Of a stretch of DNA of 64,000 nt, positions 51,748 to 63,618 are shown piece after piece. The translations under genes and the position numbers were made by a program. The stretch comes from Candidatus Anstonellales archaeon (lineage in GTDB: Archaea > Micrarchaeota > Micrarchaeia > Anstonellales > J096): the NCBI GenBank assembly GCA_038890615.1, contig JAWAFI010000001.1:336843-400842 (forward strand), read 5' to 3'. Under the pieces are notes generated by a model. It was not told where the DNA came from. It was given only the letters and a program-made list of their open reading frames with translations, and did no database searches. Positions within the stretch are counted from its first letter, which is position 1; every line of letters starts with the position of its first letter.

Positions 51748-54303
51748 CCTGCCTTTGACCACTTCTTTCCCCCCAAAGCTGCCGCCGCATTGATAAACAA
51801 CTTCCTTTGCCCTAATTATCCCTTTTTCGCCAAAAGCCCCGAATTTCCCTTGCTTACCTATGAGCAAAGCCCCTTTTACCCCTTCCTTCCTCATCCTTTC
51901 AAGCAGGCGGTCTATAATTGAGTCCTCAACTATCTCCTCTACATAGTCCTTTCCCCTTGCCTTTTCCATTTCCTTTTCCACAATCGCCTCTTCAAGGCGC
52001 TCAACCTCCTTGCGGAGCTCCTTCCACTCATTAAAGAACCTTTCTGAGGTTTTTGGCAAGTCCTCCTTTGCTACCCTAAATACGCTAGCTGACTTTGAAA
52101 GATACTCCTCCTGCTCGTGCACATACTCAAGGGCTGCTTCCCCTACCTTGTAAACAATCCTTTCTACCCCGTCCTGAACCCCCTCCCTCCTCACTATCTT
52201 AAATAAGCCAAATTCCCCTATGTTGTCATGCATCTGGTGGGTTCCGCCGCATGCCTCAACATCAACCCCTTCAATGATCACTATGCGGAGCTCCTTGCCA
52301 GGCACAGCCCCTCCTTGGTATATCCCAAACCCATACTTTTGCTCCGCTATGTTCCTTGGGATTATCTCAATGCTTATCTTCCTTTCCTCCCTTATCCACT
52401 TGTTTATCATCCTTTCCATTTCCTTGAGCTCATTGTCTTCTATTCTCTTATAGTGGGTGATGTCAAGATGGGCTATATTCTCTGATTTCTTTGCGCCTGC
52501 CTGGTAGCAGTGCCTTCCCAACACAGCCCTTGCTGCTGCGTTTATGAGGTGAGCTGCAGTGTGGTGCTTTGCAATCCTCTTTCTCCTCTCTATGTCAACG
52601 CTGCACCTAACCTTCATTCCTTCCCTAAACTTTGAAGCATCCCTTACCTTATGGAATATAACTCCGTCCTTCCTGAAGACCTCAACAACCTCTTCTTCAT
52701 TAATTTTTCCCTTGTCGCACGCCTGGCCCCCGCCTTCAGGGTAGAAAGCGCTCCTGTCAAGCACAATGTAGTTTCCATCAACCCTAAGCACAATGGCTTC
52801 GAAATCCCCTTCTTTGCCATAGTAGAGAGGCTCTGTTTTCTCTACCCCTTCTGTCTTTAGGTCAAAGCCTCTTTCTGCTATATCCTCCTTTTCGCTTATG
52901 AGCGAATAGAAATTCTCAGGCACCTTTATCTCCAGCCCTTTCTTTGCTGCTTCCTCTGCAACATATTCAGGCGGTATCCCATTGCTCTTGTAGAGCTCTA
53001 CAAGCTTTTCAGTAGTTATGCTGCCCTTGGCTATCTCCTTCTCAACCTTTCTCCCTGCCTTTTCTATTGTTTCCCTATACTTCCTTTTCTCCTCCTCAAT
53101 TACCTTCCCTGTGCTTTCAACCCCTTCCTGCAGGTATGGGAACATTTCTTCCAAGAAATCAGCATGGAGCTCGCAAAGCTTTGCATAGTCCCATTCCCAG
53201 CCAAACTTCTGCTCAAACCCGAATGCCCTCCTCAATATCATGCGCAGGTTATAGCCGCCTCCTGAATTGCCTGGAAGCATGCCGTCTGTTGTTGTGAAGA
53301 GCACCGTTAGCACATGGTCTGCAGTTGCGTAAATCGCCTGAAGCATCCTTAGCTCATTCTCATCAACCCCAATCTCCTCAACTACTTTCCTTTCAAGCTC
53401 TTTTGCGCCTTTTGTTTCTTCCATGTTTATCCTTCCCAAGCGCATGGCATATTCTCCCATTCTCTTTTCATCCACATCTACACCTGCCTGAGCCTTCATA
53501 TATTCAACTGCCTTGGCCATAACGATCTCATAAGAGGTTGGGGTTCCATGAGTTATCCAGCTGAGCCTTGCCAGCCCTGCGCCCATGTCTATAACTTTTG
53601 TGTTGAGCTCCTTTCCGCTATCTTCGTACTGCATGAAAACGCAGTTCCCCAGCTCAAGCCCATCCTTAAAGTATTCAAGAGAAGGCCCGTAGTTGCCACC
53701 TCCTGCCCAAACATCCTCAACAAATGTAATGTCCTCCTGCCTTATTCCTAAGGCTCCAAGGTAGCCTATGTCGTGCTCTATTGCTTCTTCCTTCCAGTAG
53801 AAAACCCCTGTCTTTTCAGTGTTAAAGGCCAGCTGGCCCACCATAACAAAGTTGGTATAATGCCTTCCTGTAACCCCAACATTGTCCACATCAGGGAATC
53901 TTATGCACGGCTGGGGGATTATAACAGGGTTTGCTATTGGCTCAAGCTCGCCCCTAACTGTGTAGGGCTGGAAGTCGTTTATGCTTGCTATTGTGAAGTA
54001 AAGGTCATCCCTCCACCTTGCCACTGTTGGGAAGGGCTTGACATAGCCATGCCCTGTTTTTAAAAAATAGTCCTTTATGACATTCCAAGTTTCAATATAG
54101 CCAAGCTTTTTGCCAACCTTGCCTATGAAAGAGTAGCCAACGCATTCAGAGTCCCCACAGTACTCTCTTTCTTCTATGCTCCAGAAGCTCTTCCCGCAGC
54201 CTTTGCACTTCTGCCTGCTGAACCCCCTTTCCCTTAGCACACGAAGCTCATAGTGCTTCTTCCATTCATTGCTGAACTCCCTACGGAGCTTTTCCTTGTC
54301 CAT
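51718..54303 (-). CDS. alaS: Alanyl-tRNA synthetase (archaeal type)
   Basis: ARWRDDLYFTIASI, NVGVTGRH, DMGAGL, FYPEGGGQ, HTAAHL and EACGGTH motifs. Confidence 0.97.
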   Translation of the reverse strand: MDKEKLRREFSNEWKKHYELRVLRERGFSRQKCKGCGKSFWSIEEREYCGDSECVGYSFIGKVGKKLGYIETWNVIKDYFLKTGHGYVKPFPTVARWRDDLYFTIASINDFQPYTVRGELEPIANPVIIPQPCIRFPDVDNVGVTGRHYTNFVMVGQLAFNTEKTGVFYWKEEAIEHDIGYLGALGIRQEDITFVEDVWAGGGNYGPSLEYFKDGLELGNCVFMQYEDSGKELNTKVIDMGAGLARLSWITHGTPTSYEIVMAKAVEYMKAQAGVDVDEKRMGEYAMRLGRINMEETKGAKELERKVVEEIGVDENELRMLQAIYATADHVLTVLFTTTDGMLPGNSGGGYNLRMILRRAFGFEQKFGWEWDYAKLCELHADFLEEMFPYLQEGVESTGKVIEEEKRKYRETIEKAGRKVEKEIAKGSITTEKLVELYKSNGIPPEYVAEEAAKKGLEIKVPENFYSLISEKEDIAERGFDLKTEGVEKTEPLYYGKEGDFEAIVLRVDGNYIVLDRSAFYPEGGGQACDKGKINEEEVVEVFRKDGVIFHKVRDASKFREGMKVRCSVDIERRKRIAKHHTAAHLINAAARAVLGRHCYQAGAKKSENIAHLDITHYKRIEDNELKEMERMINKWIREERKISIEIIPRNIAEQKYGFGIYQGGAVPGKELRIVIIEGVDVEACGGTHQMHDNIGEFGLFKIVRREGVQDGVERIVYKVGEAALEYVHEQEEYLSKSASVFRVAKEDLPKTSERFFNEWKELRKEVERLEEAIVEKEMEKARGKDYVEEIVEDSIIDRLLERMRKEGVKGALLIGKQGKFGAFGEKGIIRAKEVVYQCGGSFGGKEVVKGRLKEVKKYSP

Positions 54304-54313
54304 GTGCTTCTAT

Positions 54314-55999
54314 TCACGCTTTTCCTTGCTGGCTTTTTAATTCTTTTCTAAATTCATTAAGCTGGTTAAAAGCCAGTTGTTGTTGCCACGGATCCCCGAA
54401 ATTGATGAGAAGAATAAGATTGAAAAGCACTGTTGGGTCTTTCTTCTTTATTGCCTCCTGGACCTTTTCCTTTATAATTTTTTCATCATTAGTAGTAATG
54501 CCAAGCATGGAGGCAGCAACGCTTACCCTTGAATTTACAACTTCCTTGTACTCGGCAAGCTCTTTGCTGTCTATGAAGTATGACCTCTCCTTAAGCATAT
54601 TCACTGCTGAAAGATAGCCTACTGCTTTCCTTCCTTCGTCAGTAGTCGGATCCATCTCTGCAATCTGGTGCATATCTTTGGCGGTTTTTCCAATTACCTT
54701 GGGATCCCCATCTATTACATGCGACATTGCTAATGCGTAGCCTACAATCTCAGGTGGTGCATTGCTTTTAGCAAGCTTTTCAGCAATAGCCTTTGCCTTG
54801 TGCCTCTGGCCGTTTGCCATTGCCTTATGTAAGCTATCAATTTTTTTGTAAAGGCTCTTGATTCCATCCTGAGTCATTCTGCCATTTTCATCAACTTCAA
54901 ACTTATATCCTTTCCTTGGGTAGAACACCGTATACCATAATTCTGAAAGTTGATAGGTTGCGCTCTTCATTGAATTGTACACTGTCCTTGCGAGGTGAAT
55001 AGGGAGCTTTAATATGAATTCATCGGCAAATGACTTCACATAGTCCCCATTACTTAAAATTTCTCCTTTGCTCTTTTTCTCTGCTATTCTTTCCTTGTAG
55101 GTGCCATATGCGTCAAGCATTGCCATAACCCCTACTATAATCGGATCTGCAAAGCTTGCGCCTTGCTTTCCAATAGAAGCAAAACCGAGCCCAAGGGAAG
55201 CCCCTCCGCTGCCCCAATAAATAGGCCCGAGTGAAAGAGCAGGATTCTTTGAAATACTAAGCCCATAAATATCCCTCCTAAACTCAATTGCACTGTTCTT
55301 TGTTATTGCAAGACCTGCATAGGTACTACCGCTCTTCTCTGTTTGGCCTGATATCGAGGCGCTAAGAGAATGCTGTAGTTCTCCTTTGTCATTCACAACT
55401 GTTTGCACTCCTACGCCTCCATAAACAGTTTTAGTAGGCGTTAACCTTAAAATTTTCTTTGCAGCTCTTGAAAATCTAGCCCCTGCATAAAGGTGCTTTT
55501 CAGCTCCAGGTCTGTAAAACAGCTGCTCAAGCGCATTATTCATGAATTTCTTGGAGCTCATACTATCCCCGGGCTCAAGCACATATCCTTTTTCGGTTTG
55601 GGTTATCTTGTCGCCAATCATCTCAGGCCGGAGAACCCCTGTTTCAATCAGCACATGAATGCAGATATTCATTGCTCCCTTCCCTGCCTCACCGTTGAAA
55701 TAGAGCTTTCTTCCATTCTCTATCCTTGTTGCTGCTTCTTCAAGTATTTTTATAACTTCTGATATTCTTCCGCCTGTGCTACTGTCTGTGATGGCAATTA
55801 ACTCTGCGAGGCTTATTTTACTCCTATTCTTGAATGCTTTCTCAACTTCTTCCTGCACCTTGTCCAAATTAGTGTAGCCAACCCTGTCTGCGAAAAGCCT
55901 TGTTGATTCAATAGCTTGCTCCTTTGTAAGCATTATTTTGCTTGCATTTGTCCTGCCTTCAACAACCTTATCAAGATTTTGGATCTGTTTTTCTACCAT
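54314..55999 (-). CDS. Orphan 561-aa protein with central Gly-rich beta/hydrophobic segment
   Basis: Long ORF; GAGGTGAT RBS overlaps the upstream gene's stop. Confidence 0.85.
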   Translation of the reverse strand: MVEKQIQNLDKVVEGRTNASKIMLTKEQAIESTRLFADRVGYTNLDKVQEEVEKAFKNRSKISLAELIAITDSSTGGRISEVIKILEEAATRIENGRKLYFNGEAGKGAMNICIHVLIETGVLRPEMIGDKITQTEKGYVLEPGDSMSSKKFMNNALEQLFYRPGAEKHLYAGARFSRAAKKILRLTPTKTVYGGVGVQTVVNDKGELQHSLSASISGQTEKSGSTYAGLAITKNSAIEFRRDIYGLSISKNPALSLGPIYWGSGGASLGLGFASIGKQGASFADPIIVGVMAMLDAYGTYKERIAEKKSKGEILSNGDYVKSFADEFILKLPIHLARTVYNSMKSATYQLSELWYTVFYPRKGYKFEVDENGRMTQDGIKSLYKKIDSLHKAMANGQRHKAKAIAEKLAKSNAPPEIVGYALAMSHVIDGDPKVIGKTAKDMHQIAEMDPTTDEGRKAVGYLSAVNMLKERSYFIDSKELAEYKEVVNSRVSVAASMLGITTNDEKIIKEKVQEAIKKKDPTVLFNLILLINFGDPWQQQLAFNQLNEFRKELKSQQGKA

Positions 56000-56008
56000 C
56001 TAATCACC

Positions 56009-59000
56009 TCAAAATATCCAATACCAGTAGCCTCCAATCCCTATTGCCCAGCTTTGCCCTACCTTTTCGAACTTTATGTCAAGCACTCCACTGCTGTCAG
56101 AGCCTTTTTTCATATCAACTGCCACCCCCATCACGAGCTCCTTTATAGGCCCTCCTTCGAAATTCGTCTTGCCCCCTCCAAGATAAAACCTTATGTCAGT
56201 AAGCGCAAGCTTTCCTTCATTATTTACCCGCAAGCTGTATATGCCTCCATGGAAGGTTAGGAGCTCGTCAGTTACATCCTTTGCCTGCGCATTGGCGTCA
56301 ATGAGGACCATGCCCTGTTTTGTGAACCCAACATACCATTTGAGCCCATTCTTTGTCCTTACCTCAATCCCTACCTCACCAAGAGTTATTTTTGCGTCCT
56401 TGAAATATTCTGCTATCTTTTCAGGGGTTATGCTCTGGGCCATATTTCCCTCCGTATAGCCCATCACCAGCGTGATATTTCCGCTCTTTATCCCAGCGTA
56501 GAGGCTATCCGTGCTAATTACGCCTTCAGAGCCGCTTTCCTTTATCTTTTTCACTACCACCCCTAGAACTGCGCTTGAGATAGGCACAACAACCTGCGCC
56601 TCTTGCACCTCAGTCATTTTTTCTGCTTGTGTGTACTCAAAAAGCCCCATTGATGCCGCAACACCTCCATCTATCTTTATGAAAGCGTTTACCCCATAAT
56701 TCCCCTCTTTCCCGTAAAGGGCTGCAAGCTCAAGCTTTCCAAGCCCCTTCTTGTTCACAGCATAAAGAGCGCCGTAGTAGGTTTGCGATAAAGCAAAGAG
56801 CGACAATGCTGATCTGCCTCTCTTCAAGTACCTTTCAATATTGCTCTTTATTCTGCCAAGCTCTGCGTGAAGCTTTCCCTTGTCTCCTTCTGTAGAATTT
56901 ATTTCATCCAGCTTTTCCTGGTATCTTTTCAGTTCTTCTCTTATATTCACGTTTATGTATGCCAGCTCAAGAAGGGCAAAGCTGAACTCCTGCGCATAAT
57001 TGTAGTAACTCAACTGGACAGTCTGCTTTGTATTGTTGCCTTTTCCATATGTTCCCTGGAGTATGATGCTGTCCATTCCAAGCAGCGTTTCTTTTGCAAA
57101 TGTGCCAAGTATAAGACCGTCCCATTCCTCCTCACTAAGATGACCTCCAAAAGTCCCACCCACCCCTGTTCCTTTTCCTGAATATCTCCTAAGGTTGAAT
57201 ATGCTTGCATCAACGGAAATATTGCCTTCTTTCATTCCATAGCTAGCAACATAGTAGTTGTTCTCTTCCTTGCTTTCCCCTGCGATTCCAAGCCACATGA
57301 AATCCTTTTTCCTGTCTCTGCCTACGAAATAGCCAGCCATCAACCCATAGTCTAGGCTTTTTTCCCCTCCTTTTATTACAGGTGGCCCGTATACTTCAAC
57401 ATAGCCGTATTTGTTTCCTTCGCTCATGAGCAACCCAACAGCGCTTGCGTTGTCTGCAGCAGCAGCGAATGCAGCAAAGTTGTTTGTGCTCATGCTCAAA
57501 AGGCCGCCAACTAATCTATCTTCGCTTGCCATTATTTTCATTTCAGCAGAGTTTCCTGACATCGCTATAAGCAATCTGTCAAGGCCCTCTTTAGGTGCGT
57601 CGAAATGCACCCTATACCAATAGCCAGTTTCAGTGTCATGGAAGTAGCCTCTTACACTGTATCCTTTCTCTGTTTTATCAAAGAAAAGCAGTGTGTTTCC
57701 CTTAAGCAGGCCTTCTTTGACCATTAGGTCAAGCGCTGTGTGGAGCTCTTCCTCCTCTTCACCTACAACCGCACTTACTCTGCCGTCAAATGTCCAGTTC
57801 TCCCCATTGGATATGTCATTAAGGATAGAGTCCAGCCTATATCTATGGAAGTCAGTGGTTATAGTAGTATCTAACCTCCCTATCCCTATAAAGCTCGCTG
57901 TTATTGTTCCATACCCTACGTCTCTTTCACCCCTATCATAATACCTTCCACTCAATACCCCCGTCGTTTCAAGAAACTTCGTTTTATCAAAAAATTTTGG
58001 GCGCTCCATCTCTACTATAAATTTGCTTAGCGAAGAAGAGAGAATCTTGAAAGGAAGGACAGGAACATACCTTTTTGTGCTGAGTATGCTCCTTGTTTCA
58101 GCGTCGAAAGGCATTCCGAAATTCGGCCTTTCATAAGGCCCTCGCAGTTCTTCCACTGCTTGTTCCCCTCTTGTGAGCATAGGGAACAATGCATTTGCTC
58201 CAGGATAGAGCGAAAATGCGGAGGGATAGCCTCGTTGGGAAATATAGAAGTTCCTTACCCACTGCTCAGTAGGACCTAGCAGGCGCATACTTTCATCTCT
58301 TATTTGGGCATTAGACCCATACCCATATATGGTGCTTGCTGCTGTGCTTAACCCCCTGTCTTGATACATTTCATTAATTAGAATTTTCATCATTTCCTGC
58401 AGGGAGAACGAAACTACCTCTTTCTTTCTTTCAAAATGCTCCACAACCTTGCTCTCAGCTTCCCAAGTGTAGTAGCTTATTATTTTTGACTCAGCCACCG
58501 TCACAGCATTAAGCACGTCTATGAAAACCCCCAAGTCCTCAATCTGGCCTAAAAGGTGGGGGTAAAAAGAGTTTATTAGTTCCAGCTTTGTTGAATCAAG
58601 CTTTACTGCCCCGAAGTGTTCGGCGAACAGCCTTAACCACTCAACTTCATCCATCTTTGAGTCCAGAACATATTCATAACCTTTCTTTTCCTCATTCCAT
58701 TTGCCCATAACTCCTACATAATTGCTTTCCCTTATAACTGGCACAAGATTGCTGTAGAACGAGTACTGTTGGAGCAGGTCAAGGTTTTTCAGGAGCGAAA
58801 CATGCTCTAGCTGCTTCTCCTTGTTTTCCTTGGTGAATGTGCCATACTGTGCTGCAAACCCCCCCCTCCACCCTTGGAACCCTTTATCATTTTCTATCTT
58901 TTGCAATGCTTTCAGCAATACTTCATAGGCGTCTTTGCCATCCACTCCGAACCATTTCTTTAGGCTTTCTTTTGGCCCATATTTTTTCTCAATAAGGTAG

Positions 59001-59875
59001 TTCACTCCCTCCCTTCCGTTCTTTTTTTCTATTTCTTTTAGAAGCTGTCTTAAATTAGCTACTGACTGGGCTGCATCAAAAGTTGAGGCATCTGCAGCCA
59101 TTGCACTACTAAGGTTAGCATATCCTTCATTAAGCTGCATTACCTTTTGCACAACATCCTCTTCTTCCCCTATAACCTTTGCTAATTTCTCCCTGTTCCT
59201 TCTTACAAAATCCTTAAGCCGTGCTGCTCCTTCAAGCTGAGAGGGCCATTTTCCTTCTTTGATGGCCTCAATCAGCAACTTATTTACATATTTCTTTACC
59301 TGTGGATCCTTGCTCATTTCACTGTAGAGCTTTTCTGCAACTAGTCTTCCTTGTGTATCGACATCCCCCACCCTTCCCAAGAGTGCTAGAGATTGGATGA
59401 AATATTTTAGCACCATGCTTTTCTGGCTTTCTGTAAGCTCTTTTGGGTTGAAATATTGTGTTTCCAATTCACTAGGCTCTTCTTTCTTCTTATCTTCCTT
59501 TTTCGTTTTGTCTTCTTTCTCTCTCCTTTCTTCAGGTTTAGGTTCTACCTTTTTAGGGACTTCTTCCCCCTTTTTCACTTTCTCCTCTCCTTTTGGTTGT
59601 GGTTCCTTCCCTGCCTTCCTCCTACCATAAACGATCTCCTCCATCTTCTCAACGATATGCTCTACGAGCTGTTTTTTAGTAAAATTTGGATTGTTTAGGT
59701 TTTTTATAAGGAATTCATCAATAAACTTATCTATCTTTTCCATCTTCCTTCTGCTTAGATTAAGGTATTCATTCCTTGGGTTTCTTCTGTTATATTTATC
59801 TATTGCCTCTAATCTGATTTCTATCATTTTTTTCCAATCATTGTTTGATATTTTTTCTTGAGCAGACACTGGCAT
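56009..59875 (-). CDS. Orphan 1288-aa protein: helical N-half, beta-rich C-half ending in GGYWYWIF
   Basis: Long ORF, AGGTGGA RBS, no signal peptide. Confidence 0.88.
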   Translation of the reverse strand: MPVSAQEKISNNDWKKMIEIRLEAIDKYNRRNPRNEYLNLSRRKMEKIDKFIDEFLIKNLNNPNFTKKQLVEHIVEKMEEIVYGRRKAGKEPQPKGEEKVKKGEEVPKKVEPKPEERREKEDKTKKEDKKKEEPSELETQYFNPKELTESQKSMVLKYFIQSLALLGRVGDVDTQGRLVAEKLYSEMSKDPQVKKYVNKLLIEAIKEGKWPSQLEGAARLKDFVRRNREKLAKVIGEEEDVVQKVMQLNEGYANLSSAMAADASTFDAAQSVANLRQLLKEIEKKNGREGVNYLIEKKYGPKESLKKWFGVDGKDAYEVLLKALQKIENDKGFQGWRGGFAAQYGTFTKENKEKQLEHVSLLKNLDLLQQYSFYSNLVPVIRESNYVGVMGKWNEEKKGYEYVLDSKMDEVEWLRLFAEHFGAVKLDSTKLELINSFYPHLLGQIEDLGVFIDVLNAVTVAESKIISYYTWEAESKVVEHFERKKEVVSFSLQEMMKILINEMYQDRGLSTAASTIYGYGSNAQIRDESMRLLGPTEQWVRNFYISQRGYPSAFSLYPGANALFPMLTRGEQAVEELRGPYERPNFGMPFDAETRSILSTKRYVPVLPFKILSSSLSKFIVEMERPKFFDKTKFLETTGVLSGRYYDRGERDVGYGTITASFIGIGRLDTTITTDFHRYRLDSILNDISNGENWTFDGRVSAVVGEEEEELHTALDLMVKEGLLKGNTLLFFDKTEKGYSVRGYFHDTETGYWYRVHFDAPKEGLDRLLIAMSGNSAEMKIMASEDRLVGGLLSMSTNNFAAFAAAADNASAVGLLMSEGNKYGYVEVYGPPVIKGGEKSLDYGLMAGYFVGRDRKKDFMWLGIAGESKEENNYYVASYGMKEGNISVDASIFNLRRYSGKGTGVGGTFGGHLSEEEWDGLILGTFAKETLLGMDSIILQGTYGKGNNTKQTVQLSYYNYAQEFSFALLELAYINVNIREELKRYQEKLDEINSTEGDKGKLHAELGRIKSNIERYLKRGRSALSLFALSQTYYGALYAVNKKGLGKLELAALYGKEGNYGVNAFIKIDGGVAASMGLFEYTQAEKMTEVQEAQVVVPISSAVLGVVVKKIKESGSEGVISTDSLYAGIKSGNITLVMGYTEGNMAQSITPEKIAEYFKDAKITLGEVGIEVRTKNGLKWYVGFTKQGMVLIDANAQAKDVTDELLTFHGGIYSLRVNNEGKLALTDIRFYLGGGKTNFEGGPIKELVMGVAVDMKKGSDSSGVLDIKFEKVGQSWAIGIGGYWYWIF
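59703..59861 (-). repeat. 159-bp direct repeat, copy 1 (5' end of the 1288-aa gene)
   Basis: Identical to 63242-63400 except one base (59748 vs 63287). Confidence 0.95.
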
Positions 59876-59936
59876 CTATCCACCTATAAAAATAAGGGCT
59901 GGGCATATATTTAAACCTAATCTTTCTTTCCCTATT

Positions 59937-62421: not shown

Positions 62422-63618
62422 TTACTTGTTTTGTTTTTCTCTCATCTTTTCTTCTTCAGCGGCTATTTTCCTCTGTTTCATTAGCAAGTCTATTTCGTAA
62501 GGATAAAAAACCTTAGAGATGCCCGACGTCATGAACGTTATAGCGTCTTCAAGAGGACATTTTGGGTCTTTTATACATGCCTTGGCCAACTCAATAAGCA
62601 TAAGTTCTTCTGATTCTGTGAGTTGTCCTCTATATTTTTCATTTATCTCTTTTATATTGTAAGAAAAAATAACATAGTCTCCTTGTTCTAGCATCCTTTT
62701 AAGCTTTTTCCTAAATTCCTCCAATTGATTATTTATTTCCTGAAAACCTATATCAGTATTTGCTCCTGCGAGCATTAGATCAACGATCTTTTCAACTGGG
62801 CAACCAACCACAATGCAATTATGAAGTTCTTGCCCTAATTCATTAGCTCTTTTCTCTCCAATCTCTGCTCTTCTCGTTTTATTTATCATCAATAGCATAT
62901 CTCTATCACTTGGATTAAGATTTTTTTCTTTCATCCCTCTTATTACCCTCTCCCTTAAATCCTTTTCTATCCCTATTTTCTCGATGCTTTTTGAGGCTTT
63001 TTCCATATTTGGTGGGGCAGGTTTTTTCTCTTGGACATTGCTCTTTGGTGCTTCTTCTGATGGAAGTTTTGTTGGTGGAGGAGAGGCATTAGTTTTTTCT
63101 ACCACAGTAGCATTGGCTTTAGTTCTCTGCCCATCAACTGATGTTACAGGGCTGTTATAAGTTTTCTTTACTCCAGCAATCTCTTCCATTTTTTTTACTA
63201 TGCTTTCTACGAGCTGCTCTTTACTTAGCTTGTTTATATTATTTATAAGGAATTCATCAATAAACTTATCTATCTTTTCCATCTTCTTTCTGCTTAGATT
63301 AAGGTATTCATTCCTTGGGTTTCTTCTGTTATATTTATCTATTGCCTCTAATCTGATTTCTATCATTTTTTTCCAATCATTGTTTGATATTTTTTCTTGA
63401 TGTTCTTTCGTCTCTTTTGCCCCACCACGGTTGCTATAGCTAGTGGTAGCTGATGTTCCGCAAGCAATGCTAAAAGAGAGAAACATGGCTAGAGCTGCTC
63501 CTGCTAATTTTTTTAGCAACCATTTCTTTGTTGGTTTCTCTTCTGCCAACGGCTCTAAACACTTAAACTTTGTTTTATAGGTCTCTTTTCCTTTTTCGGT
63601 AATTGTTTTGCTTTTCAT
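62422..63618 (-). CDS. Orphan 398-aa protein with hydrophobic/lipobox-like segment and the duplicated module
   Basis: LAGAALAMFLSFSIAC segment; QEKISNNDW... module; Pro/Thr linker; AT-rich. Confidence 0.8.
   Translation of the reverse strand: MKSKTITEKGKETYKTKFKCLEPLAEEKPTKKWLLKKLAGAALAMFLSFSIACGTSATTSYSNRGGAKETKEHQEKISNNDWKKMIEIRLEAIDKYNRRNPRNEYLNLSRKKMEKIDKFIDEFLINNINKLSKEQLVESIVKKMEEIAGVKKTYNSPVTSVDGQRTKANATVVEKTNASPPPTKLPSEEAPKSNVQEKKPAPPNMEKASKSIEKIGIEKDLRERVIRGMKEKNLNPSDRDMLLMINKTRRAEIGEKRANELGQELHNCIVVGCPVEKIVDLMLAGANTDIGFQEINNQLEEFRKKLKRMLEQGDYVIFSYNIKEINEKYRGQLTESEELMLIELAKACIKDPKCPLEDAITFMTSGISKVFYPYEIDLLMKQRKIAAEEEKMREKQNK
63242..63400 (-). repeat. 159-bp direct repeat, copy 2
   Basis: Same orientation as copy 1, offset 3539 bp. 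Confidence 0.95.

Follow-up and report, generated by a model that had tools for sequence, protein, structure and literature searches.

An apparently undescribed family of giant archaeal proteins with a predicted transmembrane β-barrel domain and, in four genera, a downstream partner gene

In a 64,000-nucleotide stretch of the genome of a Candidatus Anstonellales archaeon, a tiny and probably host-dependent member of the Micrarchaeota (GenBank assembly GCA_038890615.1, contig JAWAFI010000001.1, positions 336,843 to 400,842 of the forward strand; hereafter the window), a gene for a 1288-residue protein, P0001, is directly followed by one for a 561-residue partner, P0002. P0001 and its relatives are a real, lineage-restricted and apparently undescribed family of giant proteins, in which a helical N-terminal half precedes a β-domain that probably has a barrel fold, and the evidence for a very large transmembrane β-barrel in the family is good but indirect. 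Transmembrane β-barrels count as a hallmark of bacterial outer membranes and organelles, and an archaeal barrel family confined to one lineage would inform three questions: whether diderm cells exist among the Micrarchaeota, how barrels can be inserted without BamA, and which proteins build the junctions between DPANN archaea and their hosts.

The two-gene unit and the family of the giant

Both open reading frames (ORFs) lie on the reverse strand and are arranged as the original prediction had described, each with its own ribosome-binding site (RBS), the second overlapping the stop codon of the first gene, and with alaS (Pfam tRNA-synt_2c, E 2.7e-82) starting at 54303, 10 nt past the partner's stop. 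The Gly/aromatic motifs quoted there for the giant and its WAIGIGGYWYWIF end are all present in the sequence. The features of the two genes are:

56009..59875 (-): ORF of the giant protein P0001, 1288 aa
54314-55999 (-): ORF of the partner P0002, 561 aa, with a helical N-part, a Gly-rich β stretch, amphipathic helices and a helical C-part
59880..59884 (-): RBS of the giant, GGTGG, upstream of its ATG
56004..56010 (-): RBS of the partner, GAGGTGA, overlapping the giant's TGA stop codon
59630..59875 (-): P0001 aa 1-82, helical N-terminal module without a signal peptide; a near-copy lies within the 398-aa gene at 62422-63618
59471..59629 (-): P0001 aa 83-135, K/E/P-rich linker by sequence (K+E 37% in aa 1-135)
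57986..59470 (-): P0001 aa 136-630, helical N-half; holds LDLLxQYxF (aa 365-373), the motif most conserved in the family
56012..57985 (-): P0001 aa 631-1288, Gly/aromatic β-meander, predicted transmembrane barrel domain by strand pattern and homolog model
56777..57004 (-): P0001 aa 958-1033, antiparallel α-hairpin within the β-domain, in the same place in most relatives and missing in genus g5
56012..56053 (-): P0001 aa 1275-1288, terminal aromatic strand SWAIGIGGYWYWIF, β-signal-like by sequence
55172..55447 (-): P0002 aa 185-276, Gly-rich β-hairpin run ending LSLGPIYWG, matched to the L-G-P-W/F hairpin of the g4 and g15 partners in a multiple alignment only, the profile being not significant

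Neither protein has a Pfam match above cut-off, and the usher, LptD, porin and TonB-dependent families give none at E≤0.1 for P0001, its relative P0004 or two g4 giants; the Atlas provides a weak lead only, a cluster in which 22% of the members carry Porin_4 (scores 0.82 and 0.88). As had been claimed, P0001 has no signal peptide, since its first 150 residues contain no uncharged stretch (not one uncharged 12-mer), and because an in-frame TAG stands directly before the ATG the frame cannot be extended upstream and a signal peptide encoded there is rejected. The G+C content of the giant and partner genes (0.43 and 0.42, vs. 0.446 for the contig) does not indicate recent transfer of the locus.

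The two genes had also been called orphans, a label that the giant loses once genomes are searched with iterated profiles starting from P0001 and its relatives. Single-sequence searches return no relative of P0002 and for P0001 only its closest one, P0004 (57% to P0001); genome searches add full-length, collinear relatives from genus g4 at 22% identity, and successive iterations match 12 of 176 order genomes, then 15 of 401 phylum genomes, then 23 of the 176 and finally, at E≤0.01, 32 of the 401, the last count including one weak match (G002, E 0.0037, in a 300-aa frame). The members of this divergent family measure 930-2120 aa and conserve the LDL..QY.F motif of the N-half, a G-x-G...GP motif that opens the β region, a W-Y-R hairpin and the terminal strand; the α-hairpin insert is usual, while strand number and inserts differ between members. 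Among 1.84 billion representatives a family profile matched 24 at E≤0.001, ten of which were looked up, and the four clusters named belong to an Anstonellales archaeon, a Micrarchaeota archaeon (twice) and an uncultured archaeon; no bacterial member is among the matches at that sensitivity, with a profile that lacks g5 and f21 members. P0049, a repeat protein that appeared in the same search at E 3.6e-4, was taken as a chance match. A word-indexed profile search found no further members, a metagenome scan with A1 no relative among 595 pattern matches and one with a g4 protein only two identical copies. Whole groups gave no match with the phylum profile (f13, 0/94; f14, 0/83; g27, 0/28), so either the range of the family is patchy or the search is too weak. 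A tree of the N-half, computed by a quick method from 31 rows without G011, clusters members by genus, G034 excepted, and because its deep forks are unresolved it cannot say whether the partner-bearing giants are one clade.

Individual members show peculiarities of their own. The G011 giant is split into ORFs of 414 and 906 aa by one in-frame TAA (L007:6498-6500), through pseudogenization or an assembly error. G141 holds a second, more distant giant (L123:4192-8481, E 3e-7 to the profile) that has Ns at its end and adjoins a SecB-like look-alike gene; a SecB-like neighbor was considered as part of the unit and rejected, as it adjoins the giant in two g32 loci only and the homolog in G000, the genome of the window, lies ~62 kb from the giant. 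Two g15 giants, in G034 (L046:5774-9580) and G156 (L079:2204-5908), start with TPR-like repeats recognized by eye, which shows the N-terminal module to be exchangeable.

Predicted fold of the β-domain

The barrel assignment is carried by the compact β-domain of the g5 homolog in G015, a distant relative of P0001 without the α-hairpin insert. Its AlphaFold2 (AF2) model has 31 strands of mean length 9.7, a predicted local distance difference test score (pLDDT) of 66, reaching about 70-90 over residues 260-515, and a predicted TM-score (pTM) of 0.50. Foldseek returns 196 matches at E≤1e-3, and all those listed (top 50 ranks) are transmembrane barrels, among them PapC/FimD ushers (best E 3.2e-8), LptD, Deinococcus SDBC, VDAC and porins. 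The 50 VIA matches listed are likewise all transmembrane barrels (Z 14.2-8.1), led by 5oyk at Z 14.2 with a root-mean-square deviation (rmsd) of 4.0 Å over 206 aligned residues, and eight of them, judged by residue ranges only, start no later than model residue 20 and extend to 515, a span that neighboring first and last strands would produce. The strands present two distinct faces, one with 78% apolar and 4% charged residues, the other with 37% apolar, 22% charged and 39% Gly/Ser/Thr/Asn, an asymmetry (z 5.3) equalled by none of 2000 shuffles. Residues 123-239 of the model likely hide further strands. Modeling of the homolog predicts the C-half to be a single antiparallel meander, with a geometry like that of outer-membrane barrels and one apolar face.

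In P0001 itself the N-half has helical periodicity (helical moment z 4.1) and aa 630-1288 hold 23 alternating strand-like windows vs. 13.5±2.6 in shuffles (z 3.6); the 170-degree hydrophobic moment scores z -0.9 over aa 621-960 and +2.0 over aa 1031-1288, and the chance tests on the strands give a mixed result overall. The AF2 model of aa 280-1288, built from an alignment of 32 rows, contains confident helices at aa 280-467, the α-hairpin at aa 958-1033 and strands along the C-half, of which the last five reach a pLDDT of about 70-76.

Several results weigh against a barrel. The P0001 model as a whole is too poor for fold assignment (pLDDT 50, pTM 0.33): its Foldseek matches, all with TM≤0.08, mix propellers with barrels and are uninformative, VIA matches the α-hairpin only, and the face asymmetry on its own strands is not significant (z 1.4, equalled by 172/2000 shuffles). 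Across the family the strand-pattern z has a median of 1.6 and exceeds 2 in 9 of 26 members. The G015 model has weak points too, namely its pTM, a pLDDT <50 over residues 123-239 and a TMq of 0.12-0.30 to any barrel, and AF2 may favor barrels for any amphipathic meander. The homology that joins g5 to P0001 is also weak (G017 matched with E 0.0087 while the profile still lacked g5, and a g5 β-domain profile does not reach P0001), so that the connection is made by shared motifs, layout and gene order. The barrel proposed originally for P0001 is, in sum, partly supported, by the modeled β-domain of its homolog and not by a model of the window protein itself, and we consider a barrel fold of the family's β-domain probable. 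By prediction the family is outer-membrane-barrel-like, yet it could be placed in none of the named families examined.

The meander, long, joined by short turns and apolar on one side, could also remain open, as a β-groove like those of the TamB/AsmA/VPS13 bridge-like lipid transfer proteins, with host lipids carried along the apolar groove; the low global TM to all barrels and the variation in strand number and inserts would both suit such a protein, and TamB, too, ends in a β-signal-like strand. We regard an open groove as improbable, because every match listed by either fold search is a closed barrel, eight VIA matches span the first to the last strand, and the second face, being rich in small and polar residues and only 22% charged, would resemble a lumen more than a soluble surface. 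P0001 has no N-terminal membrane anchor of the TamB/AsmA type. A TamB/AsmA groove, an RHS shell, a propeller and SprA are all absent from the listed matches of the G015 model, although the listing does not rule them out.

The poor P0001 model, the propellers among its top Foldseek matches and its nonsignificant face asymmetry would equally fit a soluble or surface (S-layer-associated) β-rich shell or adhesin that never enters a membrane and in which the terminal aromatic merely packs. Such a shell is decidedly unlikely in view of the strongly apolar face in g5 and the conservation of the terminal aromatic across families; moreover, neither model's strand pattern has the propeller or sandwich topology that the original prediction had named as speaking against it.

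Export signal, partner gene and a possible conduit

The terminal aromatic strand noted in P0001, which ends YWYWIF, is kept by the family: the last residue is Phe or Trp in 23 of 31 complete members and aromatic in 26, vs. Phe or Trp in 42 of 690 G000 ORFs, where the 31 members include kin that are not independent and leave out the truncated G135, G039 and G159 and the N-containing second G141 copy. Many members end in Y-x-F/W (GGYKF, FGYKF, VFYKF, GGYRF, GGYKW). The exceptions to a Phe or Trp end are g4, the majority of g15 and G023, and in G062 the last residue is Tyr. Signal-peptide-like N-termini, called by a crude rule that by eye misses G141 and G131, occur in none of 13 partner-bearing giants vs. 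9 of 19 others (G138 and P0004 left out), where the partner-bearing genera amount to only four independent observations. The Sec signal peptide expected of an outer-membrane barrel is thus in neither P0001 nor the 13 partner-bearing members.

That giant and downstream gene should co-occur elsewhere was a condition of the original prediction, and they do in part: a gene of 560-840 aa lies directly 3' of the giant in 12 genomes of four genera (G000 itself, three from g4, four from g5 and four from g15; namely G000, G003, G007, G011, G004, G012, G015, G017, G034, G040, G156 and G157), and G159 has giant and partner matches on separate short contigs, but the partner is missing behind 18 giants with readable downstream DNA and is therefore not obligatory. 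These downstream genes have a common layout (consecutive Gly-rich strands, amphipathic helices and a helical tail), with the L-G-P-W/F hairpin common to g4 and g15; the alaS adjacency is not seen in the relatives' fetched loci. A partner profile matches 15 of 176 order genomes, comprising G000 (by construction), g4 (3/3), g5 (4/6), g15 (6/8) and one weak g7 match, and none in g28, g30, g32, g34, g19 and g12, whose giants stand alone; the partner match in G010 has E 0.005. For P0002, the predicted Gly-rich hairpin is there, whereas the predicted hydrophobic stretch peaks at a KD19 of 1.24, weak for a transmembrane helix, and appears to read better as a Gly-rich hairpin plus an amphipathic helix. 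To judge by position, layout and aligned motifs (the L-G-P hairpin), P0002 may belong to the partner group, its profile match being not significant. A complex prediction for the g5 β-domain and the N-part of the g5 partner (score 0.02, mark 0.32) speaks neither way.

Upstream of some giants stand further genes. In g5 a conserved gene of 860-950 aa directly precedes the giant, so that the unit comprises three genes, in genomes of 0.5-0.6 Mb (L083:1-1752, L114:2331-5171, L115:2481-5141, L116:2914-5496). The g4 loci hold a third gene, which overlaps the giant's start and matches PG_binding_1 weakly (best E 4e-4, below cut-off); no such gene turned up in G000 or in the remaining loci that were fetched. 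The g4 genes are:

L006:1066-2205: PG_binding_1-like gene, upstream of the giant
L007:7742-8857: PG_binding_1-like gene, upstream of the giant
L008:10002-11027: PG_binding_1-like gene, upstream of the giant

We tentatively propose, as a possibility that falls somewhat short of an even chance, that the giant is a plugged single-chain barrel conduit in the envelope with a partner that delivers or gates it. P0001 would then combine a soluble helical N-half with a transmembrane β-barrel of some 30-40 strands, whose last strand would pair with the first to close a ring that, by the geometry for 30-40 strands, would have a backbone diameter of 5.5-7.3 nm. Because an open pore of that size would drain the cell, the N-half, the α-hairpin insert or the partner may plug it. 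Giants that have a signal peptide would use Sec for export, and signal-less ones such as P0001 would carry a partner that replaces the targeting step or completes the barrel; since the partner-bearing relatives show no export signal, the partner likely helps to deliver or gate the predicted pore. Insertion would be independent of canonical BamA, and the likeliest job, given the lineage's lifestyle, would be the exchange of macromolecules or metabolites at the site of host contact. The split between signal-peptide and partner-coupled giants would offer a new handle on barrel biogenesis, with one concrete gene pair to start from. A wider generalization, in which Micrarchaeota own a class of giant single-chain barrel translocons of at least SprA size, BamA-free, with two export modes (a Sec signal without partner, or a partner without signal) and serving as conduits to hosts, strikes us as unlikely in its entirety.

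Counting against this proposal, the g4 and g15 giants are mostly without a terminal Phe and ten partner-less giants likewise have no called signal peptide. Homology of P0002 to the other partners was not detected (hhalign prob 0.2; ranks 8 and 7 of 897 ORFs), and a leave-one-genus-out test among the partner groups recovered only g4 (E 1.4e-6). There is no Omp85/BamA (PF01103) candidate in G000, which is 94% complete, in a search whose control was found in 7 of 14 genomes and which a very divergent insertase could escape; a screen of G000 found no second barrel-like ORF, and the two together argue against an outer membrane of bacterial type that is equipped with a set of barrels. One cultured Micrarchaeon, Ca. 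Micrarchaeum harzensis A_DKE, is reported to have an S-layer over one membrane (10.1101/2021.04.28.441871).

Alternatively, the barrel might serve structure or transport in a genuine outer membrane, a second one around these archaea, like Deinococcus SlpA or the OmpM tethers, with the N-half spanning the periplasm and the barrel as anchor. The same fold evidence applies, with SDBC (7zgx and 8agd) and OmpM1 (8bym) among the listed matches; nine partner-less giants have signal peptides, the PG_binding_1-like gene precedes the giant in g4, and a passage of PMC8871954 cites ARMAN, along with Ignicoccus and Altiarchaeum, as diderm. The patchy range of the family, with 32 of 401 phylum genomes and none in f13 or f14, the single barrel-like ORF per proteome, the missing Omp85, the reported S-layer and the signal-less P0001 make an outer-membrane tether distinctly improbable. 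The barrel might otherwise be placed in the outer membrane of a Gram-negative host, whose BAM would read the terminal strand to yield a feeding or translocation pore: the Y-x-F/W ends of many members resemble the bacterial β-signal, G000 has no BamA of its own, and a PG-binding-like gene stands upstream in three g4 loci. We find a host-inserted pore very unlikely, as there is no known host, the PG-binding match, found in g4 alone, falls below cut-off, the g4 and g15 ends depart from the β-signal, and BAM works from the periplasm, which the giant would need to reach.

In full-text searches we found no published account of transmembrane β-barrels in Micrarchaeota or DPANN archaea, although supplementary annotation tables and subscription papers could mention them; the words barrel, porin and outer membrane do not occur in the main text of PMC12892359, and the proteins of DPANN-host junctions are called poorly understood in a passage of PMC11329633.

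Elsewhere in the window, the giant's first ~80 codons (59634-59861 (-)) recur at 63179-63400 (-) with 89.6% nucleotide identity over 230 nt, behind a signal-peptide-like stretch in the 398-aa gene at 62422-63618 (-); as the closest relative, P0004, differs in its first ~80 codons, the domain was likely copied or converted recently. The 398-aa gene has a low G+C content (0.354), and its ~80-aa module (aa 210-295), which contains an LMLAGANTD motif that we take to be ankyrin-like, recurs in at least 10 other G000 ORFs (E≤3e-4) as an expanded paralog family. G000 also encodes other very large secreted-looking proteins of 4157 aa (C6:3-12473), 2840 aa (C1:304733-313255) and 1678 aa (C3:51585-56621). 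Near the giants of G140 and G122 lie β-rich proteins (L022:14334-17999 and L025:14374-15858), one ending GTLQLRLGGEF and the other with a strand-rich N-half, which may be further barrel families.

Comparison with known systems

The top Foldseek matches of the G015 model, PapC/FimD (24 strands) and LptD (26 strands), at E 3e-8 to 1e-5, share the plan predicted for the giants, in which one chain forms a large barrel and also carries soluble domains and an insert. They differ in that the TMq is 0.2-0.3 at 6-12% identity with no Pfam match, the model has at least 31 strands, the accessory parts of the giants are helical instead of Ig or jellyroll, and no chaperone or Lpt genes were seen near the giants. 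General porins, TonB-dependent transporters and VDAC/Tom40 give the best VIA matches (Z 14.2-11, rmsd 3.3-6.5 Å over 184-271 residues) and resemble part of the meander in strand tilt, curvature and short turns, but they cover about half of the G015 domain and have 16-22 strands vs. at least 31.

In Deinococcus radiodurans SlpA/SDBC (7zgx, 8agd) and the OmpM tethers (8bym), which are among the listed Foldseek and VIA matches, an N-terminal helical region precedes a large barrel at the C-terminus whose end is aromatic, as is predicted for the giants; no SLH domain was found in the giants by Pfam scan, the TMq is 0.12-0.17, and the giants carry an α-hairpin inside the barrel sequence, are archaeal and are without BamA. 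The SprA/Sov translocon of type IX secretion has 36 strands, similar to the number predicted for the giants, and a partner could plug or complete the barrel there as well. It is not among the listed matches, though not thereby excluded, there is no sequence or Pfam match to it, and no type IX secretion genes were seen in the loci.

From the DPANN themselves comes the docking complex of Microcaldus variisymbioticus ARM-1, a barrel-shaped structure on which host-derived nanotubes dock and for which the accessible passages of PMC11329633 name no protein. At 21 nm it is about three times as wide as the 5.5-7.3 nm computed for 30-40 strands, but it shares with the conduit proposed here a barrel-like form in the envelope of a DPANN symbiont at the point of contact with its host.

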